A stretch of 64,000 bases of DNA from an uncultured Rickettsiales bacterium (GTDB lineage Bacteria; Pseudomonadota; Alphaproteobacteria; Rickettsiales; RI-342): the NCBI GenBank assembly GCA_964538615.1, contig CAZIGK010000009.1:8072-72071 (forward strand). The letters run 5' to 3'. Shown one piece after another: positions 22,618-31,954 of this stretch. Numbering within the stretch: position 1 is the first letter of the stretch; each line of letters starts with the position of its first letter. Position numbers and translations under genes: made by a program. The notes beneath the pieces are model-generated. The model was given only the letters and a program-made list of their open reading frames with translations. It was not told the origin of the DNA and did no database searches.

Positions 22618-25161
22618 CTAACTATACCACCAGTGGCGCTCTTCCACCCCCCTCCTCCACAACAACCACCCCATCAACACGGCAATCACCAGCAACCACA
22701 CCCAGCGTATCTCACCAAATTGCTGTTGCACTTCCAGATGGCTAATCCGGCTATCCGGTTCGGCACCGGCCAGTTCGGCGGTGCTGTTGAAACTGACCTG
22801 CGTGATGCGGTAGTAGCCATCTGGCTGTGGCTCTACCAACAATCCGGCACTGGCCAGACGGGACAGGCCATCTGTACCGCGTTCTGCCAGGGGCAGTAAC
22901 ATCTTGTACTCGGCAGCGACTCCCTGCACCTGTACATCCGCTGCGGGTTGCAGGGTCAGGCGTAATATCGCATGATCCGGCAGACGCTCCACCCATGCGC
23001 TTAGCTGATCTGCTGGCAGGCTACGGTAATCCGGTTTCCAGAAAGTCAGCAACATATGCGGCCATAAAAGTAACATGACCATCAGGGCGCAGGCCAGCCG
23101 TTCCCACCAATATAGACGCAAGGCTCGTACCTGCCACCATTGCATCCATAACCACAGGGCCAGAACTAACACGGCAAAAATCACCCAGCTACTCACCTGC
23201 GTGGCACTCCAGTACCGCAACCACGCAGGCTGACCCAGTTGCATCAATGCTAACATCAGCGCAAAGCTGATGAGGGGCAGCAGCTCTTGCCAGCGATAAC
23301 GAAAGATGACCGTACTGGCGACCCCCATACCGGGCAGAAAATCCCCCAACACCATCCAGAGCCAGAGCATCGTGGCAACAGATGCCTGCGGATAGACGAC
23401 TCCAAACTGTTGGCAAACCTGCAACAAAAGAGGCAGGAATAAACTCCCCATCAGCATCATTTTGGCCAATAGTGGCTGCCCGATAGTGAATAACATGGCT
23501 GCCAGTACGGTCCAGAAAACGGTGAGTCCAAACCAGCCCATGCCCATCTGCATGACCAGATTATTCAAAAAATTACTGCTTCCGATGAGGGATAATATGC
23601 CCATCATCATGCCGGCTACCGCTGCAATTACTAATACAGCAGAAAGCCAGCGCGCGGCATCCGTTGCGGTATGACGGAACGCCAGTAGCATATGTCCCAG
23701 CCGCTGTTGCCAGCGATAACGCTGTACCCGTTCTGAAAATAACCGTTGCAGGACAATCAACCAAAGACCCAGCCACGCCATTTGCCACAGGCCAGAACCG
23801 ACATCCCACAGCAGAAACGCAACCCCCACACCCCATACCCACGGCACCCAATGGTGCAAACCCTGTACCAGTAAACGGCAGGCAAACCAGTGCTCTGATA
23901 CATGTGACGCATAGCGCGTGGCAACCAAGCGCGCCAATACCATCCAGCCGATCCCCACCCCAGCCAGCAGACTGACCGATGCCCCAACCGTGGCCACCAG
24001 CGCATAGGCAGAGGCGAATAGCAGCAGAAACCACACCACCAATAATGCTCCGGCAAGCAGGGTTTGTTGCCATGGCAAATGCAGGCTAAGCCTCTGAGGG
24101 GTCGTGGCTAACGCCGCAGATACCCCCAGTCGGCCATGCCATACCACCAATAACATCAGCAGCAGAGCCACCCAACTTTGTATATGCTGATAATCCGACA
24201 GTCCCTTCGCATCGACATCCAGCGCAACGCCCAGTCCGGCTCCGCTCAGGAGGGGGGGCAGCAAAGGCATCGCCATGGTTATACCAACCAGCATCCAAAG
24301 CGCATCAACCGGTGCAATATGATGCCGACGGCTGACCTGTAGCACGTGGTATTTAGCGGCCAGCCCGTGCACCAGTGGCGATGCCGCCATCACCCCTTGC
24401 ATCATCAGGGTAAAGCTGGCCGCCCAACGGGCGCCGCGCTGCCCCAGCATGGCAAACCACCAACGCTGCCAATAATCCATACTGCCACTCTGGCGCAGAC
24501 TGGCAGCCCACAAGGTAAACAGGGCAACTTCCTGCAGGGTTGTTCCAACCCCTACCCCAAAGGCTCCATCCATCGTCAACCATTGCTGGCGAATCAGTTT
24601 GTCCCAGCCATAGTCCCGGTGCCGTAAAAACTCTGGCCACAGGCTCCATTCTCCATGCAGGGTGAACCCAAGAAGTATCACGACCCATACCACCAATAAC
24701 CGCGCCCGCCACTGCCACGCCAACCCAAGCAAACAACCCATACCTCCCAGACCCGCCCATAACAACAGCGGCATGGTCTGGTGTGCCGAGGAAAGCGCCT
24801 CCTCCCCCCGATAGCCCAGCGCGGTATAGGCAACCGTCAGGCATACACCCGCCGCCATGATTTTATAGAACACCAGCCATACGAGGGAGGGACGCCCCAT
24901 CCTTCCATAATGGGGGAGCAGTGGGGCGGCCATCAGCATAAAGGCTCCAGCAAGCGCCATATGCATCTGCCGTCCTGCCAGAGTACCCGTAAACCAGGTG
25001 GCATTAAAGGCATAGGTTGTCAGCAGCAACAGCATCCAGCCGATAGCAAACCAGCCGACCAGAATATTCCAGTAACTTTTCCATCCTTCGGCTCTGGAAG
25101 GACGAGGCGGAGTGGGCGCATGCTCAACCGATGCCTCACCCGTCATGGCCTGCTCCCCCAC
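22618..25161 (-). CDS. Divergent TAXI-TRAP fused permease (DctQM-like, DUF3394-like C-terminus)
   Basis: Many TM segments; GAFGVGVGT..ALF.LW, AAVAGMMMG and C-terminal RL..AGL...V.FNS.AE.AG resemble TRAP 4TM/12TM fusions; directly downstream of a TAXI binding protein. Confidence 0.75.
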   Translation of the reverse strand: MGEQAMTGEASVEHAPTPPRPSRAEGWKSYWNILVGWFAIGWMLLLLTTYAFNATWFTGTLAGRQMHMALAGAFMLMAAPLLPHYGRMGRPSLVWLVFYKIMAAGVCLTVAYTALGYRGEEALSSAHQTMPLLLWAGLGGMGCLLGLAWQWRARLLVVWVVILLGFTLHGEWSLWPEFLRHRDYGWDKLIRQQWLTMDGAFGVGVGTTLQEVALFTLWAASLRQSGSMDYWQRWWFAMLGQRGARWAASFTLMMQGVMAASPLVHGLAAKYHVLQVSRRHHIAPVDALWMLVGITMAMPLLPPLLSGAGLGVALDVDAKGLSDYQHIQSWVALLLMLLVVWHGRLGVSAALATTPQRLSLHLPWQQTLLAGALLVVWFLLLFASAYALVATVGASVSLLAGVGIGWMVLARLVATRYASHVSEHWFACRLLVQGLHHWVPWVWGVGVAFLLWDVGSGLWQMAWLGLWLIVLQRLFSERVQRYRWQQRLGHMLLAFRHTATDAARWLSAVLVIAAVAGMMMGILSLIGSSNFLNNLVMQMGMGWFGLTVFWTVLAAMLFTIGQPLLAKMMLMGSLFLPLLLQVCQQFGVVYPQASVATMLWLWMVLGDFLPGMGVASTVIFRYRWQELLPLISFALMLALMQLGQPAWLRYWSATQVSSWVIFAVLVLALWLWMQWWQVRALRLYWWERLACALMVMLLLWPHMLLTFWKPDYRSLPADQLSAWVERLPDHAILRLTLQPAADVQVQGVAAEYKMLLPLAERGTDGLSRLASAGLLVEPQPDGYYRITQVSFNSTAELAGAEPDSRISHLEVQQQFGEIRWVWLLVIAVLMGWLLWRRGVEERHWWYS

Positions 25162-25173
25162 AAGGCGCCTGCA

Positions 25174-26250
25174 TTACTGATACAATTCTGGCGTTTCACC
25201 TGTTTTCAGAATACCCGCTTCCTGAAACCATTGAATAGCCGCAGGATGCATGGGAACAACCATGCCCTCATGTGCCATTTGTTCTTTACTCAGGCTGGAA
25301 AAAACCGGGTGCAGGGTACGGAAATTATGAAAATTATCCTCTACCCGATCTTCTCCGGTAATTTTATTCTGGTAGGTTTTGCTGCCGAAGACAGCGCGCA
25401 AGACTTCCTGCACTACCCGGTCATCCGTTCGGCTGGTTGTCAGCAGGGCGGCTTTCACCCCGAACGATGGAATATCCTGCACCATACCTTTATACATGCC
25501 CGCCGGAATGCCCGTGCGTACATAAAACGGGTTTTGCTTCAATAGCTTTTCAATATCCAGCAAATCCAAAGGTACCATGACAGCATCGCAACTACCTGTC
25601 ACTTTCTCTACCAATGTATTCGGGTGACCAATGGTGTGTACAAATGCATCAATATCTCCATCACAGAAGGCTTTTTCCAATTCTTCAGACGCCTTCAGTT
25701 CCGATACTTTTTTGAAATCACGATAAGTCCAGCCCTTACTGTTCATCATTACGTCCATCGTAATGCGTGTACCAGAGCCGGGATTGCCAATATTCACCCG
25801 TTTGCCTTTCAAATCATTGAAGCTGCGGATACCAGACCCCGCACGGGCAACCACGGTAAAAGGCTCGGAATGTAAGGTAAAGACGGTGCGCAAATCCTTA
25901 AAGGCGCCAGCTTTCTGAAAAATAGCACTGCCGTGATACGCATGGTATTGCCAGTCAGACTGGGCAATCGCAAAATCCATATCCCGTTGATGAAGTGCTT
26001 GCAAATTGTAAATGGAACCATCCGTGGATTCCAGCAAACATTTCAAGCCATGCGACTTGATATTCAGGTTGACCAATTGGCAAATAGCACCACCAATGGG
26101 GAAATACACCCCCCGGATAAGACCGGTGCCGATGGTAAAATACTCCCGCGCTTGCGTTGGTTGCGCTTTTGCCTGCGTTAGACCAGCAGCCAACAAGCCT
26201 GCCACCACAACATACCCGATCCACCTACGCATACCCGCTCCTTCATTCAT
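25174..26250 (-). CDS. TAXI-family TRAP solute-binding protein
   Basis: TIGTG...GVYFPIGGAIC, STDGSIYN, AQSDWQYHAY, HSEPFTVVAR, GNPGSGTR, GHPN, P.HPAA. Confidence 0.95.
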   Translation of the reverse strand: MNEGAGMRRWIGYVVVAGLLAAGLTQAKAQPTQAREYFTIGTGLIRGVYFPIGGAICQLVNLNIKSHGLKCLLESTDGSIYNLQALHQRDMDFAIAQSDWQYHAYHGSAIFQKAGAFKDLRTVFTLHSEPFTVVARAGSGIRSFNDLKGKRVNIGNPGSGTRITMDVMMNSKGWTYRDFKKVSELKASEELEKAFCDGDIDAFVHTIGHPNTLVEKVTGSCDAVMVPLDLLDIEKLLKQNPFYVRTGIPAGMYKGMVQDIPSFGVKAALLTTSRTDDRVVQEVLRAVFGSKTYQNKITGEDRVEDNFHNFRTLHPVFSSLSKEQMAHEGMVVPMHPAAIQWFQEAGILKTGETPELYQ

Positions 26251-26364
26251 TCCGGCATGGAGTTTTTATCTATTCAGCATACCGGATGAAGCGCAGTTTG
26301 CAAGTGCGGCCAGTGCCGCATCATGCATCAGAAAAAAATCGTGGAGAAAAACCCCCAAGACGGG

Positions 26365-26871
26365 CTACAATTTAAAGGCATCCTGAATGTAGCGGGTCCA
26401 GAACCCTTCCAACAATCGCAGCGTGGAATTCACGCGTGCAAGAACATTGATATCAAGATCTCCGCCGCTTAACTGAAGGATATGCCGCTGATACAGGGCA
26501 TCAATTTTTTCGCAGAGTACCAACCCCTTATCGGATAATTTGACCCGCGCAGAACGTTTATCATGCGGGGAACGCTCATGCACCAGATAGCCATTTTCTA
26601 CCAGCTTTTTGACGTTATACGATACATTGGATCCCAGATAATATCCCCGGTTCGTCAACTCTCCAATGGTGAGCTGTTCATCACCGATATTATAGAGAAT
26701 CAATGTCTGGATGTTATTGATATCTTCAATACGCATCCGATCCAGCTCTGCCTTAATGACATCCAGAAAACGGCGGTGCAACCGTTCCAGCAACAAAATG
26801 GATTCCAGATAGACATTCTTCACCACTGCCTGATCCTGCAAAGCCATGGCATTCAATTTCTGTTCCGACAT
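26365..26871 (-). CDS. MarR-family regulator, LdtR-like
   Basis: ERLHRRFLDVIK.ELDR, LYNIG, RGYYLGSNVSYNVKKLVE.GY, D.RS.RV.L. Confidence 0.9.
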   Translation of the reverse strand: MSEQKLNAMALQDQAVVKNVYLESILLLERLHRRFLDVIKAELDRMRIEDINNIQTLILYNIGDEQLTIGELTNRGYYLGSNVSYNVKKLVENGYLVHERSPHDKRSARVKLSDKGLVLCEKIDALYQRHILQLSGGDLDINVLARVNSTLRLLEGFWTRYIQDAFKL

Positions 26872-26929
26872 GCGGCATCCACCTATCAACATCAACACTG
26901 AGGTTGCTAAATACTATGGGGGCTTAGGT

Positions 26930-29140
26930 TTAAGAATCCGTTGCCTGAGACGCTTTTTTCTCCTCTTCCATCACTGGCAGGCGCACCAATGCCTGCGCGC
27001 CTCCCTCCGTGCGGTTGCGAAATTGCAGGCTCCCCCGATGATCCACCAGAATTTTATGCACAATCGCCAACCCCAACCCCGTGCCCCGTGCTTTGGTGGT
27101 GACATAAGGCTCTGTCAGTTTTTCCAGCAATTCCGGCGGGATACCCGGCCCATTATCCTGTACGGTCAGGCACCATTGCTGCCCTTGCTGCTCCAATGCG
27201 ACCACCACTTTGCCTGTCTGAGGCTCGTCCCCCTCTCCAACGATAGCTTCTGCGGCATTTTTCAGGAGATTGGTCAACACTTGCATCAGTTGTTCGCGGT
27301 CTCCCTCCACCATCGCAGTCCCTGTTGGCAGTTCTTGCTCAAAATGGACGCTATTCCATCGGCATTCTTCCGAAAAAACGGCCTCTTTCACTAATTTTAC
27401 CAAATTGACCGGACGCAGAGATGGCGCCGGCATCCGGGCAAAAGAGGCAAACTCCTCGACCATGCGGCCAATGGTTTCCACGTGGCGGGTAATCGTATCC
27501 GTGTAGCGGTAGAAGTTCTCTCGTTCCTCTGGATTTTCCTGCTTATCGGCATATTTGCGACGCAGTCGCTGCGCGGCAAGCTGAATGGGGGTCAGTGGGT
27601 TTTTAATCTCATGCGCAATACGGCGTGCCACATCCGCCCAGGCGGCACTTCGCTGGCTGGTGACCACATGGGTAATATCATCAAACGTCACCACATAACC
27701 ATCTACTCCTGCCGCATATGGTGATGCCTCCGCCAGTACCCGCACATGCAGGGTCACGCTGCTCTCCGGCATCTGGTGTGGAATATCTGTCTGCACCGCT
27801 TTACCGGGCTGCCGCTCCGCCTGTTCCAGCAAGGACTGAATAGCAGGCCATACGTCTCCCAGATCACGCGCCAGATACTCCGCCTCCTCACACCCCAGTA
27901 AATCGCAGGCTGAACGGTTCAGCAACGTGACCTGACGCTTCGCGTTTAAGGCAATCACCCCGGCAGAAACCCCTTCCAGCACTGCCTCCATAAAACGGCG
28001 GCGGGCATCTAACTGTTCGTTCGTGCGCGTAACAATACGCTTTTGCTGTTCCAATTGTTCCGTCATGCGGTTGAAAGCTGTTTCCAGTGCGGCTATTTCA
28101 TCCTGCCGTTTACTTTCCTGCACCCGCACGCTGTAATCACCGCGCCCAACCTGCTCGGTCGCGGTGGCCAGTTTTCCAATGGGGCGCACCAGCCGGGATG
28201 CCAACAATAAAGCAGACGCCCATGCCACCAACAGCAGCAAGACCGTCAGCAACGCAAAACTTAGAAAAAACCGATATTGAATGGCGTTAATCTGGCTTTG
28301 CAGCTTTTGGTATTCCGATGCCGCTCCTTTGGCGCGCTCGGTATGTTCCAGAATTTTCGGATCCACAAACCGGCTCACCATCAACATGGCACCGCCCGTA
28401 CCCTCAATACGGGCAATGGCGGTCACGGCGTCATTATCCTCTTCATTCAGATACACCACCTGCCCTTCGGCGACCCGCTCCAATAACCGCTGGGGTATAT
28501 GTTGAAAGGCAAACGTTAAGGCCAGTTCTGATTCCGCAAAAATTGTATCTCCCCGAAACACCACCGCTTCTGACAGGGAGCGCACCCGCACCTGCGCGGA
28601 TAAAAATTGCCGAAACAAGCCTTCATTGGTGAAAAGAATGGTCGAGTTGCGGGCAATATCAGATGCCAGCCCCCGTGCATCCGATTGCAGATTTTGCTTA
28701 TGCTCTTCCAGATAGGCTTCCGCCACCGCCACCGATTGTTCCAGTACGGTATGTAATTTGCTGTCAAACCAGCGGTGCACCCCCACATAAAACAAATAGC
28801 CGGAAAAACTGGCCACCACACCTCCGGGCAACAGAACCAGCAAACTGAAAATAAGGATCAAGCGTTTCTGCAGACGGGAACCGCTTCTACCTTCCCGCAC
28901 TTCCCGCCAGATAGCATAAAGCCGCCACAATACCAGCCGCAGCACCAGCATCAGCAAAATCGTGTTGGCCGCAATCAGCACATAGCCAGACGGCGATTCC
29001 ATGGCCATATGTTCATCGGAAAAACTAAGCAGCCCATAACTCACCACCACGCTGACTGCGGTGACAATGAGCAGCGCAATGGTTGCCTGCCAACTGGTCA
29101 GCCGATGTTTCCAACGCTGCCAGAACGACTGGATAGGCAC
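26930..29140 (-). CDS. ntrY: Sensor histidine kinase NtrY
   Basis: GSRL..RL..IFS, HAMP, PAS, AAWADVARRIAHEIKNPLTPIQLAA.RL, EPYVTTK..GTGLGLAIV. Confidence 0.93.
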   Translation of the reverse strand: MPIQSFWQRWKHRLTSWQATIALLIVTAVSVVVSYGLLSFSDEHMAMESPSGYVLIAANTILLMLVLRLVLWRLYAIWREVREGRSGSRLQKRLILIFSLLVLLPGGVVASFSGYLFYVGVHRWFDSKLHTVLEQSVAVAEAYLEEHKQNLQSDARGLASDIARNSTILFTNEGLFRQFLSAQVRVRSLSEAVVFRGDTIFAESELALTFAFQHIPQRLLERVAEGQVVYLNEEDNDAVTAIARIEGTGGAMLMVSRFVDPKILEHTERAKGAASEYQKLQSQINAIQYRFFLSFALLTVLLLLVAWASALLLASRLVRPIGKLATATEQVGRGDYSVRVQESKRQDEIAALETAFNRMTEQLEQQKRIVTRTNEQLDARRRFMEAVLEGVSAGVIALNAKRQVTLLNRSACDLLGCEEAEYLARDLGDVWPAIQSLLEQAERQPGKAVQTDIPHQMPESSVTLHVRVLAEASPYAAGVDGYVVTFDDITHVVTSQRSAAWADVARRIAHEIKNPLTPIQLAAQRLRRKYADKQENPEERENFYRYTDTITRHVETIGRMVEEFASFARMPAPSLRPVNLVKLVKEAVFSEECRWNSVHFEQELPTGTAMVEGDREQLMQVLTNLLKNAAEAIVGEGDEPQTGKVVVALEQQGQQWCLTVQDNGPGIPPELLEKLTEPYVTTKARGTGLGLAIVHKILVDHRGSLQFRNRTEGGAQALVRLPVMEEEKKASQATDS

Positions 29141-29149
29141 AAGCAGACC

Positions 29150-29500
29150 CTAACCGCGACGACGTGCGCGTGCTTCCGCAACAGGCAGGGTGAAAATGCG
29201 GGCACGGCGGGCGCGGCGGCCACGGCTGGCGACCAGCGCATCATCAATATGCAAATCCTGAATTTTCTGACGCAGGGTGTTGCGGCTCAGACCCAGTAGG
29301 GTCGATGCTTTGGACTGGTTGCCTCCGCATTGCTTCAGCACCAGTTCCACCAGCGGTTTTTCTACCTGTTGGATAACCATGTCATATAACTGGCCTTCCG
29401 GCAGGTTTTCACCATGCTCGGCAAAAAACCGCATCAGATAGTCCTTCACCACATCCCCTAAATGGTTTTGCGGTTGCAATTGTAGTGCGACATTGTTCAT
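29150..29500 (-). CDS. Stand-alone Fis-like HTH protein (NtrC C-terminal domain-like) with an Arg-rich tail
   Basis: [43 protein letters not shown] (HTH_8); ATGA overlap with the dusB stop; GGAGG RBS. Confidence 0.88.
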
Positions 29501-30579
29501 GACAGCCCTCCCTGTCGGTGTGAATCGTCTAGTTCCAGAACAGAATCATAAAAATCATGAATCGCCTGAATAGCATCCTTCAACTGCTCAATGTGATTGA
29601 ACCGTTGCCGGAATTCCGAGCTATTGCGCAAACCGCTGCTATACCAGCCAACATGCTTGCGCGCCAGTCGCATGGCGGTGATCTCGCCGTAATGCTCCAC
29701 CATCGCCTGATAATGACCTAGCACAATCTCCTTTTGCTGCGCAAGTGTCGGCGCAGGAAAAATCTCGCCTGTCTCCAAATAATGCGCCATTTGTCCCGGC
29801 AACCAGGGTTTACCGTAGCTACCACGGCCAATCATCACCCCATCCGCACCAGACTGGCTAAGGGCCTGGTGTACATCTTCCATCGTGGTAATATCTCCAT
29901 TCACCACCACGGGAATCTTCACGGCATCCTTCACGGCACGCACAAAGCCCCAGTCCGCACTGCCCTTATACATCTGGCAGCGGGTGCGACCATGCACCGT
30001 AATCATCTGAATCCCCACTTCTTCTGCAATTTTTGCTAATTTGGGGGCATTCAGGTTGCTATGATCCCATCCCATGCGCATTTTCAGCGTGACCGGCACT
30101 TTCACGGCCTTGACCGTGGATTCCAGAATCTTTGCGGCCAGCGGTTCGTCTTTCATCAAGGCGGAACCGGCATAGCCATTGACCACTTTTTTGACCGGAC
30201 AGCCAAAATTAATATCCACAATCTGCGCGCCACGGTCTTCATTCAACTTGGCGGCCTCCGCCATGACATCCGGCTCACAACCCGCCAGTTGCACCGCCAT
30301 CATCCCTTCTTCCGGGTCACGGCTGGCTTTCAGCAGGGTTTCCCGGCCTTCCAGAATCATGGCGCGGCTGGCAATCATTTCGGAAAAAACCATGCCCGCA
30401 CCATAGCGTTTGGCCAGACGGCGAAATGGTTGATCCGACACACCGGACATCGGCGCCAGAAACACATTATTATCCACTTCATGCGGACCAATGTTGATTT
30501 TAGAGCGCACAACACGCGCCACACCACCCGCAGAAGGGGTAGCCGGTACAGTAGCAGCAGGGACAACAGCAGGGTTCAT
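29497..30579 (-). CDS. dusB: tRNA-dihydrouridine synthase B (NifR3)
   Basis: [53 protein letters not shown]. Confidence 0.96.
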
Positions 30580-30685
30580 AGGCGCAGGATCAGGATGACA
30601 AATGACATAATTCGCGTTAGGTGTGCTTTTGCATAGCCTGCTTTCACGCAGTATGCAAGATGCTAATTGCGCAAAAAATGCTCAT

Positions 30686-31954
30686 ATGTCCCCATTCCCG
30701 CACACTACCCTATCTGCTTCTTCTCAACTGGCCATCCTTGTGGTTGCGGCGGGGCGTGGCCAGCGCATGGGCGCAGCCCTGCCAAAACAATATTTGCCCC
30801 TCGCAGGTCAGCCGGTTTTACGGCATAGCATACAGGCATTGCTGGCCGCTGCGCCGTCCCTTCCCTGTCAGACATCTGTCCATGTGGTCATCCACCCGGA
30901 AGATGAAGCCCTGTACCGACACGCCACGGATGGATTACACTTAGCTCCTCCTATCGCAGGTGGCGCAACCCGTCAGGCATCGGTTTATGCGGGGTTGCAG
31001 GCATTAGCCAGCCTGCCCAACCCACCCGCCTATGTCGCCATTCACGATGCCGCACGCCCTTTCCCCTCACCCGCCTTATGGCAAAGGCTGTGGCAGGCAC
31101 AGCAGCAACAACCTGACCATGGCATCATTCCTACCCTGCTGTTGGTGGATTGTGTCAAACAGGCAGATGCTTCCGGCCTGATACAAGCAACCCTGCCCCG
31201 TGCGATGCTGCGACGGGCGCAAACCCCGCAGTGCTTCCCTCTGCAAGCCATATTACATGCGCATCAGCAGGCCGCAGGACAAGAATTGCCGGATGACGCC
31301 GCCGTCTTTGAACAGGCAGGCCTGCCCGTGCAGTGTGTGGATGGCGATGAAGCGAACCGTAAACTCACCACACCCGATGATCTGCAATGGGCAGAGCAGT
31401 TGTTGCATCCATCTCACGCATCCCACGCACCCACGGCAGCCGCCATACCCTATCTGACCATCACCGGCCATGGCTATGATGTGCATCAACTGGAGTGCAA
31501 CCCTGCTAAGCCCCTGATGATTTGCGGGGTGGCCATTCCATTTGAGCAATCCCTGAAAGGCCATTCAGATGCGGATGTCGGGCTGCATGCTTTGGTTGAT
31601 GCCATTCTCGGCACCATTGCCGCCGAGGATATTGGTTTTCATTTTTCTCCCAAAGATGCTCGCTGGAAAGATGCGGATTCTGCCACGTTTCTCCACCACG
31701 CCCTGCATTTGCTGACAGAACAGGGCGGCAGGCTGCTCCATTGCGACATTACATTGGTCGGAGAAGCCCCCAAGTTTGGCCCTCACCGCGATGCCATGAA
31801 GCGAAAACTGGCTGAGCTGACCGGCTTGCCGCTTCCACGTATCAGCATTAAAGCCACAACCACGGAAACACTGGGCTTTACCGGCCGACGGGAGGGACTG
31901 GCCGCCTTTGCCACCGCAACCGTGCAACTACCAGCGGATACCCCTGGCTCCTGA
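30686..31954 (+). CDS. ispDF: Bifunctional IspD/IspF (MEP pathway)
   Basis: AAGRGQRMG...PKQY, GG.TRQ.SV, HDAARP, QTPQ; GYDVH, GHSDADV.LHA, KATTTE.LGFTGR.EG. Confidence 0.95.
   Translation: MSPFPHTTLSASSQLAILVVAAGRGQRMGAALPKQYLPLAGQPVLRHSIQALLAAAPSLPCQTSVHVVIHPEDEALYRHATDGLHLAPPIAGGATRQASVYAGLQALASLPNPPAYVAIHDAARPFPSPALWQRLWQAQQQQPDHGIIPTLLLVDCVKQADASGLIQATLPRAMLRRAQTPQCFPLQAILHAHQQAAGQELPDDAAVFEQAGLPVQCVDGDEANRKLTTPDDLQWAEQLLHPSHASHAPTAAAIPYLTITGHGYDVHQLECNPAKPLMICGVAIPFEQSLKGHSDADVGLHALVDAILGTIAAEDIGFHFSPKDARWKDADSATFLHHALHLLTEQGGRLLHCDITLVGEAPKFGPHRDAMKRKLAELTGLPLPRISIKATTTETLGFTGRREGLAAFATATVQLPADTPGS

Follow-up and report, generated by a model that had tools for sequence, protein, structure and literature searches.

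We analysed a 64,000-nucleotide stretch of DNA (the window) from an uncultured Rickettsiales bacterium (contig CAZIGK010000009.1), in which a small open reading frame (ORF) for a Fis-like protein occupies the interval from dusB to ntrY. The alphaproteobacterial arrangement dusB/nifR3-ntrB-ntrC-ntrY-ntrX has ntrB and ntrC in this slot. All three window genes are on the minus strand. The first gene of the presumed operon is dusB (29497–30579), which encodes tRNA dihydrouridine synthase B (360 aa; Pfam Dus, 341 bits; NCBIfam TIGR00737 DusB, 416.5 bits versus a cut-off of 293.3). The small ORF (29150–29500) encodes 116 aa and ends with TAG. Its ATG overlaps the TGA of dusB as ATGA, and a Shine–Dalgarno-like GGGAGGG, read from the sequence (29506–29512, minus strand), lies within the 3′ end of dusB, 5 nt upstream of this ATG. 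The sensor histidine kinase gene ntrY (26930–29140; 736 aa; Pfam NtrY_N, HAMP, PAS, HisKA and HATPase_c) begins with a GTG 9 nt past the TAG. Upstream, ispDF (30623–31954, plus strand; fused IspD–IspF, 443 aa; Pfam IspD and YgbB) is divergent from dusB, and it recurs as the divergent neighbour in relatives. The small ORF is thus directly 3′ of dusB, as is fis in E. coli, where it begins 25 nt after dusB. Its sole above-cut-off match in Pfam was the helix-turn-helix (HTH) family HTH_8 (PF02954, ‘Bacterial regulatory protein, Fis family’; 54 bits versus 22, residues 44–81). No receiver, AAA+ or NtrB-type kinase was detected with Pfam in the dusB–ntrY interval. Coordinates, junctions and domains therefore bear out an earlier sequence-only reading of this DNA, which had described the divergent ispDF, the ATGA overlap, an HTH-only 116-aa ORF with its own ribosome-binding site and ntrY at 9 nt, and had reported ntrB, the NtrC receiver and the AAA+ domain to be missing from the locus.

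The small ORF and ntrY share a reading frame (29129–29242, minus strand), interrupted by the TAG and three codons (…RARRRG-stop-GLL, then the GTG start and VPIQSF…). The chance of this being a coincidence is one in three; read-through of the TAG would yield an HTH protein–NtrY fusion.

The assembly of the locus was checked against public sequencing runs. Contigs from two runs of one study tile 28800–30800 with zero differences; the sample behind the assembly may itself be among these two runs. A single 1075-nt contig spans 29050–30124, which covers the ntrY start, the entire small ORF and the dusB 3′ end, and bridges both junctions. The public-run contigs give no support to an assembly artefact, and the assembly gap that the sequence-only reading had considered was not seen. 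The public runs listed as holding 28800–30800 were just two DNA runs labelled hot springs metagenome (share of words 0.96–0.97), an unusual label for a Rickettsiales relative; none of the runs listed was an RNA run.

The structure of the small protein was predicted with AlphaFold2 from an 89-row alignment (mean predicted local distance difference test score, pLDDT, 85.5). The model has a four-helix core (residues 14–82; 29255–29461, minus strand) with helices at 14–29, 38–57, 62–69 and 73–82 (block pLDDT 89–97), of which the last two (C and D) form the HTH. In a Foldseek search of the PDB, the first 31 ranks shown were all Fis chains, with target-normalised template modelling (TM) scores of 0.67–0.92 (best 0.79–0.92) and root mean square deviations of 1.3–2.2 Å over 73–81 columns; the NtrC4 DNA-binding domain and Brucella NtrX came next. 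The best PDB matches by sequence were P. aeruginosa PA4853 (6m10, E = 2.4e-12) and E. coli Fis (E = 4.2e-11). The homodimer model scored 0.70, as compared to 0.00 for the best of three controls, with an interface of residues 12–57 and 67–71 (helices A and B), contacts agreeing to at least 67% between runs and a partner pLDDT of at least 69. Among proteins of solved structure, 20 of 30 pairs attained that mark, as did 1 of 23 single chains. This predicted dimer may reflect the likeness of the protein to solved Fis dimers, or a memory of them in the model.

The protein thus shares much with Fis of Gamma- and Betaproteobacteria (NF001659 and NF002517; PDB 3IV5, 1ETY and 6M10): helices A–D only, a C-terminal HTH, a predicted helix A/B dimer and a gene that follows dusB. 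In the alignment with E. coli Fis, the first paired residues are Fis 23 and window 10, and residues 1–13 are modelled as coil with no strand. Therefore, unlike Fis, the window protein does not have the N-terminal β-hairpin arm. Fis uses this arm to stimulate the Hin and Gin invertases. Other differences are an NtrC-like N-terminal helix region, scores below both curated Fis cut-offs, ntrY as the next gene and the alphaproteobacterial host. The residues of E. coli Fis that contact DNA are, according to PMC4784862, Asn73, Thr75, Asn84, Arg85 and Arg89. These align to N61, S63, S72, R73 and R77 of the window protein, so that Asn73, Arg85 and Arg89 are kept, while Thr75 and Asn84 are replaced by Ser. 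In the same study, exchanges of Asn84 for smaller side chains are described as hardly affecting binding at the majority of high-affinity sites. Beyond the contact set, the counterpart of Thr87 is kept, and Lys90 is replaced by Gln.

The core is followed by a 30-residue Arg-rich tail after helix D (residues 87–116; 29153–29242, minus strand), which contains 12 Arg residues and was modelled as a low-confidence helix (block pLDDT 65–71). The sequence-only reading had pointed out this tail, and it proved to be kept in P0002, the lone close homologue described below. No counterpart was found in 31 stand-alone or 26 full-length relatives, in which the longest tail has 13 residues. An origin of the tail from an N-terminal extension of NtrY was considered and discarded, as inspection by eye showed no resemblance to the NtrY N-termini in four members of the family. 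A stand-alone HTH protein of another genome, G009 (L022:114-431, plus strand), carries a Lys-rich N-terminal extension (KAKKKGKAKAVVKAKPKRKKKP), and several other stand-alone proteins have short basic C-terminal ends. Trimmed forms may have gained basic extensions repeatedly.

The sequence-only reading had proposed a survey of dusB-X-ntrY synteny in related genomes. We built a profile from 11 stand-alone proteins and searched it against 251 genomes of the same order. It matched 67 genomes at E ≤1e-12, 63 of them at E ≤1e-19. Sorted by ORF length, the 63 strong matches comprised 33 stand-alone forms (83–177 aa, window included), 26 full-length NtrC proteins (485–575 aa) and 4 intermediate forms. 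For the 62 relatives, the neighbours in the surrounding DNA were labelled by BLASTP, with proteins of the window and of canonical loci serving as references. Full-length NtrC was followed by ntrY in every genome (26/26), and was mostly preceded by an NtrB-type kinase (23/26) and before that by dusB (18/26). For the stand-alone forms in relatives, the next downstream match was NtrY-like in 29 of 32, and 13 of the 32 had the exact window arrangement. Junctions between dusB and the next gene were tight in relatives (−26 to +80 nt); an ATGA or GTGA overlap was seen twice between dusB and ntrB, and once between dusB and a stand-alone ORF. The arrangement dusB–small ORF–ntrY(–ntrX) was also present in named public records, namely Candidatus Megaera polyxenophila, two ‘Rickettsiales bacterium’ metagenome-assembled genomes (MAGs) and a Micavibrio MAG. 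The arrangement is not a one-off. The other stand-alone proteins of the order (G175, G243, G212, Candidatus Megaera and others) resemble the window protein in their place between dusB and ntrY, in their similar size (82–122 aa) and in purifying selection. They differ in having a typical NtrC-like HTH (ATxGNQxKAAxILGINRNTLRKKI) and ntrX after ntrY, whereas the window protein is just 33–38% identical to them, bears the long Arg-rich tail and has its ntrX unlinked.

The intermediate forms were of two kinds, apart from one NtrC (G003) that is cut by a contig end. In G331 (L168:2493-3566, minus strand), a 358-aa receiver-less NtrC with AAA+, lid and HTH_8 regions directly follows dusB without ntrB, and precedes ntrY-ntrX. 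Such a protein would be constitutive, in the manner of PspF, and would stand midway between full NtrC and the HTH-only ORFs. In G032 (L021:7898-8584, minus strand) and G185 (L187:2498-3292, minus strand), a GNAT acetyltransferase is fused to an NtrC-type HTH_8 directly before ntrY. The full-length NtrC of G238, which belongs to the same genus, has an HTH that clusters with those of the fusions. One chromosomal position thus shows a graded series: dusB-ntrB-ntrC-ntrY(-ntrX), dusB-[AAA+ and HTH]-ntrY, dusB-[HTH only]-ntrY and dusB-ntrY. Two split genes were also seen. In one relative (L200, G270), NtrY is divided into two adjacent ORFs, and in a named alphaproteobacterial MAG (L203), a split NtrC has its HTH part in a 179-aa open frame of its own; each may be a sequencing error or a truncation in progress.

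The window’s own family was compared through four other genomes (G001–G004), which showed several states of the locus. In G002, dusB overlaps ntrY with nothing between them. In G001, the two genes are separated by 355 bp of tandem repeats (L117:4557-4911), about five head-to-tail copies of a unit of ~59 bp; this element may have filled or caused the deletion. G003 has kept ntrB after dusB, and its ntrC lies before ntrY on another contig. In G004, dusB and ntrY are unlinked. A comparison of the first residues of the window ORF with the NtrB N-terminus was precluded by N-terminal peptides that were too short and divergent.

Selection was assessed on the stand-alone genes of relatives by the Nei–Gojobori method, as the ratio of nonsynonymous to synonymous substitution rates (dN/dS). 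Four pairs whose dS did not exceed about 1 gave values of 0 (dS 0.20), 0.049, 0.051 and 0.12, and two remoter pairs (dS ~1.7–1.8) gave 0.25 and 0.26; dS was saturated in the remaining seven pairs. Eleven columns were invariant across 11 aligned stand-alone proteins. These genes of the relatives are under strong purifying selection. The sequence-only reading had allowed for a neutrally decaying remnant, should relatives carry full ntrBC. Relatives with dusB-ntrB-ntrC-ntrY do exist (18), yet the stand-alone ORFs of relatives gave dN/dS values of 0–0.12 in the pairs of lower dS. For the window protein itself, a word-indexed protein search returned one close homologue, P0002, which is 81% identical and 119 aa long, and is a metagenomic entry available as protein only from a 596-bp contig. 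The differences are mostly N-terminal, and the HTH and the whole Arg-rich tail are almost unchanged. An exhaustive search of representative sequences gave nothing above 87 bits, the query aside. The metagenome scan gave only Fis-type matches, with identities of at most 54% over the core and up to 62% on short pieces.

The statement of the sequence-only reading that the protein resembles both NtrC and Fis held when the sequence was compared by segments. The N-terminal 24 columns (before LYDMV) had a mean identity of 27–35% to alphaproteobacterial NtrC and stand-alone forms, as compared to 12% for Fis of Neisseriaceae and 20% for gamma Fis. An N-terminal helix of the YFxAHxxxLPxxGLY type is common to the window protein and alphaproteobacterial NtrC. 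In the HTH part the order was reversed, with a mean identity of 61% to Neisseriaceae Fis versus 53–57% to the alphaproteobacterial groups. Over the whole core, the highest mean identity was that to alphaproteobacterial NtrC (47%). Among the NCBIfam models, those for Fis ranked first, although below their cut-offs (NF002517, beta type, 75.9 versus 122 bits; NF001659, E. coli type, 62.4 versus 99). The NtrC model TIGR01818 ranked third with 43.9 bits versus 558.6, and matched only over positions 394–463, the last 70 of the model.

Trees were unrooted and had no outgroup, because the C-terminal domains of NtrX missed the 1e-5 threshold of the stand-alone profile. In a 128-row tree (88 columns, quick search), the 34 Fis rows were split from the 94 alphaproteobacterial rows with a Shimodaira–Hasegawa-like approximate likelihood ratio (SH-aLRT) support of 99, and the pair containing the window protein (the window pair) fell on the alphaproteobacterial side. 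A more careful tree was made from a 57-row subset, hand-picked to represent each group with 71 rows left out, and this subset was also used for approximately unbiased (AU) tests. Here, the window pair and the long branch of G006 floated between own-family NtrC, the Fis clade and other alphaproteobacterial rows. A single origin for all stand-alone forms was rejected (log-likelihood, lnL, 42 lower than the free tree; p = 0.0097); the stand-alone group had been defined by ORF length before the trees, but was AU-tested after they were seen. In the family f18, stand-alone forms sit inside the f18 NtrC clade (SH-aLRT 97). The stand-alone and full-length forms of f18, and likewise the fusion and full-length forms of the genus g33, group with supports of 96–99. 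These groupings and the rejection of a single origin indicate that truncation occurred more than once.

With these results in hand, we consider it probable that the 116-aa ORF functions as a gene, that its product is a small, probably dimeric DNA-binding protein with the Fis/NtrC-DNA-binding-domain fold, and that the ORF is the remnant of ntrC after an in-place deletion of ntrB and of the receiver and AAA+ parts. The in-place truncation proposed in the sequence-only reading rests on synteny, since the gene tree cannot choose between placements: the series of locus states in the same order argues for it, and the AU tests brought no decision. Further support comes from the native dusB, from the likeness of the N-terminal part to NtrC and from the numerous parallel cases.

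Several observations weigh against this explanation. Joining the window pair with all Fis gave an lnL 0.6 higher than the free tree (p = 0.52), whereas joining it with the own-family NtrC of G003, which the free tree keeps apart from it, lowered the lnL by 9.9 (p = 0.18). The window protein has a 10-residue HTH stretch in common with Neisseriaceae Fis, and its bit scores with neisserial Fis (72–75) equal those with NtrC and stand-alone forms of the order (72–76). The family relatives are all about equally remote (62–67% identity for DusB and 44–45% for NtrY), which gives no means of dating the deletion. No DNA of a close relative of the window gene was found in the protein, representative and metagenome searches, and therefore dN/dS could not be computed for the window gene itself. 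Promoter and terminator scans of 26200–30900 gave five sites each, with 3.8 and 5.1 expected from shuffles, and were uninformative on transcription units.

The Fis-like HTH may have come from outside. A beta-proteobacterial fis of the Neisseriaceae type, or its HTH-coding part through gene conversion, would then have replaced the dusB–ntrY interval, and the protein would be a transferred Fis instead of a trimmed NtrC. The greater HTH identity to Neisseriaceae Fis and the ranking of both Fis models above the NtrC model agree with a transfer, as does a 23-residue stretch that the window protein has in common with Neisseriaceae Fis. The AU test retained a joining with Neisseriaceae Fis (lnL 6.1 lower, p = 0.36) as well as that with all Fis. 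A pattern-seeded genome scan also had Neisseriaceae Fis as its best matches (47–52% identity), but its seed, CGGNQSKA, introduced a bias to Neisseriaceae. Moreover, the larger tree divides all Fis from all alphaproteobacterial rows, the window included, and the N-terminal 24 columns are clearly NtrC-like, far from the 12% identity seen with Neisseriaceae Fis. The neighbouring dusB is native, being 62–67% identical to that of family relatives versus 44–47% to that of Neisseria. The insert would also have had to hit the ntrBC slot exactly, overlapping by 4 nt on one side and leaving 9 nt on the other, in an order that shows in-place truncation many times. The G+C content at third codon positions (GC3) of the small ORF matches the genome (0.581 versus a mean of 0.578, sd 0.051), yet this test has little power because a Neisseria-like donor would have a similar composition. 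Taken together, we regard a transfer as unlikely.

The truncation could instead be old. If a single early event in a large part of the order had produced the stand-alone gene, the window copy would be a fast-evolving orthologue, inherited vertically or passed within the order, with no deletion in its own family. The 128-row tree is in line with this, as it sets the window pair among 16 stand-alone proteins (f3, f7, f11, f15, f17, f19 and f36; SH-aLRT 85), next to G006, and several of those families have the identical dusB-X-ntrY arrangement. However, this grouping is poorly supported, and G006, the partner, sits on a long branch (2.2–2.8). In the 57-row tree, the window pair leaves this group, and its nearest row by path is own-family NtrC. 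G003, from the same family, retains a full NtrC before ntrY, and the single origin of all stand-alone forms was rejected, so we hold one early truncation to be similarly unlikely. Least of all do we expect an inert leftover, in which the ORF would persist for ntrY-expression signals in its DNA or for too little time to decay: two family members lost the whole dusB–ntrY interval, which makes the segment dispensable in some lineages, but the ORF is intact with a Shine–Dalgarno sequence, P0002 varies N-terminally while its HTH and tail stay nearly constant, the orthologues of relatives are constrained, and the fold is predicted with confidence.

Under in-place truncation, ntrB would have been deleted where it stood, together with the ntrC segments for the receiver and AAA+ domains. 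The C-terminal helices A–D alone would have been retained, and would be translated from the start codon that overlaps the dusB stop, with the small ORF presumably co-transcribed with dusB and ntrY. Compared with alphaproteobacterial NtrC, whose slot, neighbours and C-terminal model positions it shares, the protein has neither receiver, AAA+ domain nor ntrB partner, its HTH is closer to neisserial Fis, and it carries the Arg-rich tail. The loss of these parts would leave it neither phosphorylation control nor, with the ATPase gone, the activation of sigma-54 promoters. It would bind NtrC/Fis-type sites, most likely as a sigma-54-independent repressor or as a DNA-bending architectural protein. 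The 30-residue tail would have been gained in the window lineage, and should add non-specific nucleic-acid affinity. In a study on Caulobacter, NtrC bound a Fis-like motif, both repressed and activated, and had 37 of its 51 sites overlapping those of the nucleoid protein GapR (bioRxiv 10.1101/2023.06.06.543975). By analogy, this suggests that a repressor or bender role may be open to the NtrC DNA-binding module. Other small Fis-like DNA-binding proteins are phage lambda NinH and Xanthomonas Flp, which we liken by description (PMC7166090 and PMC6640185); unlike the window protein as interpreted here, they are neither in-place ntrC derivatives nor linked to ntrY.

The rest of the window genome (2.25 Mb, 53 contigs, 53.5% G+C) was searched for rpoN, ntrBC and ntrX, as had been proposed along with the earlier reading. 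That reading had noted that ntrX is missing, which holds for the locus; elsewhere, on contig C10, an NtrX is encoded (NF051870, 679 bits versus a cut-off of 600), unlinked from ntrY. RpoN is encoded as well, and FlbD is encoded beside flagellar genes. Two generic NtrC-family activators score 390–393 bits with TIGR01818, below the NtrC cut-off of 558.6. Among the AAA+ activators genome-wide, none adjoins an NtrB-type kinase in the stretches inspected, and no bona fide NtrBC was found. With the complete domain set of NtrY and an NtrX on another contig, NtrY and NtrX, the two halves of this two-component system, are both present. Judged from gene content, NtrY/NtrX is kept though unlinked, and sigma-54 is still in use. 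The ntrX gene (L036:5853-7328, minus strand, on C10 of G000) lies near motB and the gene for the ATP synthase delta subunit. It is next to ntrY in none of the five family genomes, contrary to most of the order. In the window, the genes 3′ of ntrY are not ntrX but those of a 177-aa MarR-family regulator and, beyond it, a TAXI-type TRAP transporter (22618–26250, minus strand), in which a solute-binding protein (NMT1_3, 358 aa) stands beside an 847-aa fused permease with DUF3394.

In enteric bacteria, Fis is one of the principal nucleoid proteins. Morett and Bork are said to have proposed, in FEBS Lett in 1998, that it derives from the C-terminal domain of an alphaproteobacterial NtrC; as far as we know, the proposal reportedly rests on sequence likeness and on the shared dusB/nifR3 neighbour. 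To our knowledge, no living intermediate between NtrC and Fis has been described. The full-text literature searched, which takes in few subscription journals, yielded no account of a stand-alone Fis-like gene in the ntrBC slot of Alphaproteobacteria or Rickettsiales; the matches for Ehrlichia ‘Fis family’ concern NtrX. The stand-alone genes are already present in public genomes, and the value of the present locus is in the natural truncation series and in its odd, tailed mosaic member. The notion of an independent origin of Fis, advanced in the sequence-only reading, is plausible in the light of synteny, a matter on which the trees give no resolution.

A bolder extension is conceivable, but we think it rather improbable. 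In it, the window protein, which fits as sister to all beta/gamma Fis no worse than at any other place in the tree, would be the closest living alphaproteobacterial kin of the Fis ancestor, so that the order would preserve the route to Fis. Reduced-genome alphaproteobacteria would repeatedly make dusB-linked Fis-like proteins from NtrC. If this were true, Fis would have reached the beta/gamma ancestor as a ready-made dusB-fis unit, and would not have been cut from NtrC after transfer. Independently of this, the Arg-rich tail could mark a new type of nucleoid protein.

A whole order of small-genome alphaproteobacteria thus shows, at one locus, full ntrBC, a receiver-less NtrC without ntrB, an HTH-only gene and none. 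Since HTH-only forms had more than one origin and evolve under purifying selection, it is now possible to test a route on which domain loss turns an activator under signal control into a small, constitutive DNA-binding protein. These findings suggest that reduced, host-associated alphaproteobacteria without NtrBC still use the DNA-binding module of NtrC, which bears on nitrogen and redox regulation in bacteria that have NtrY/NtrX only.

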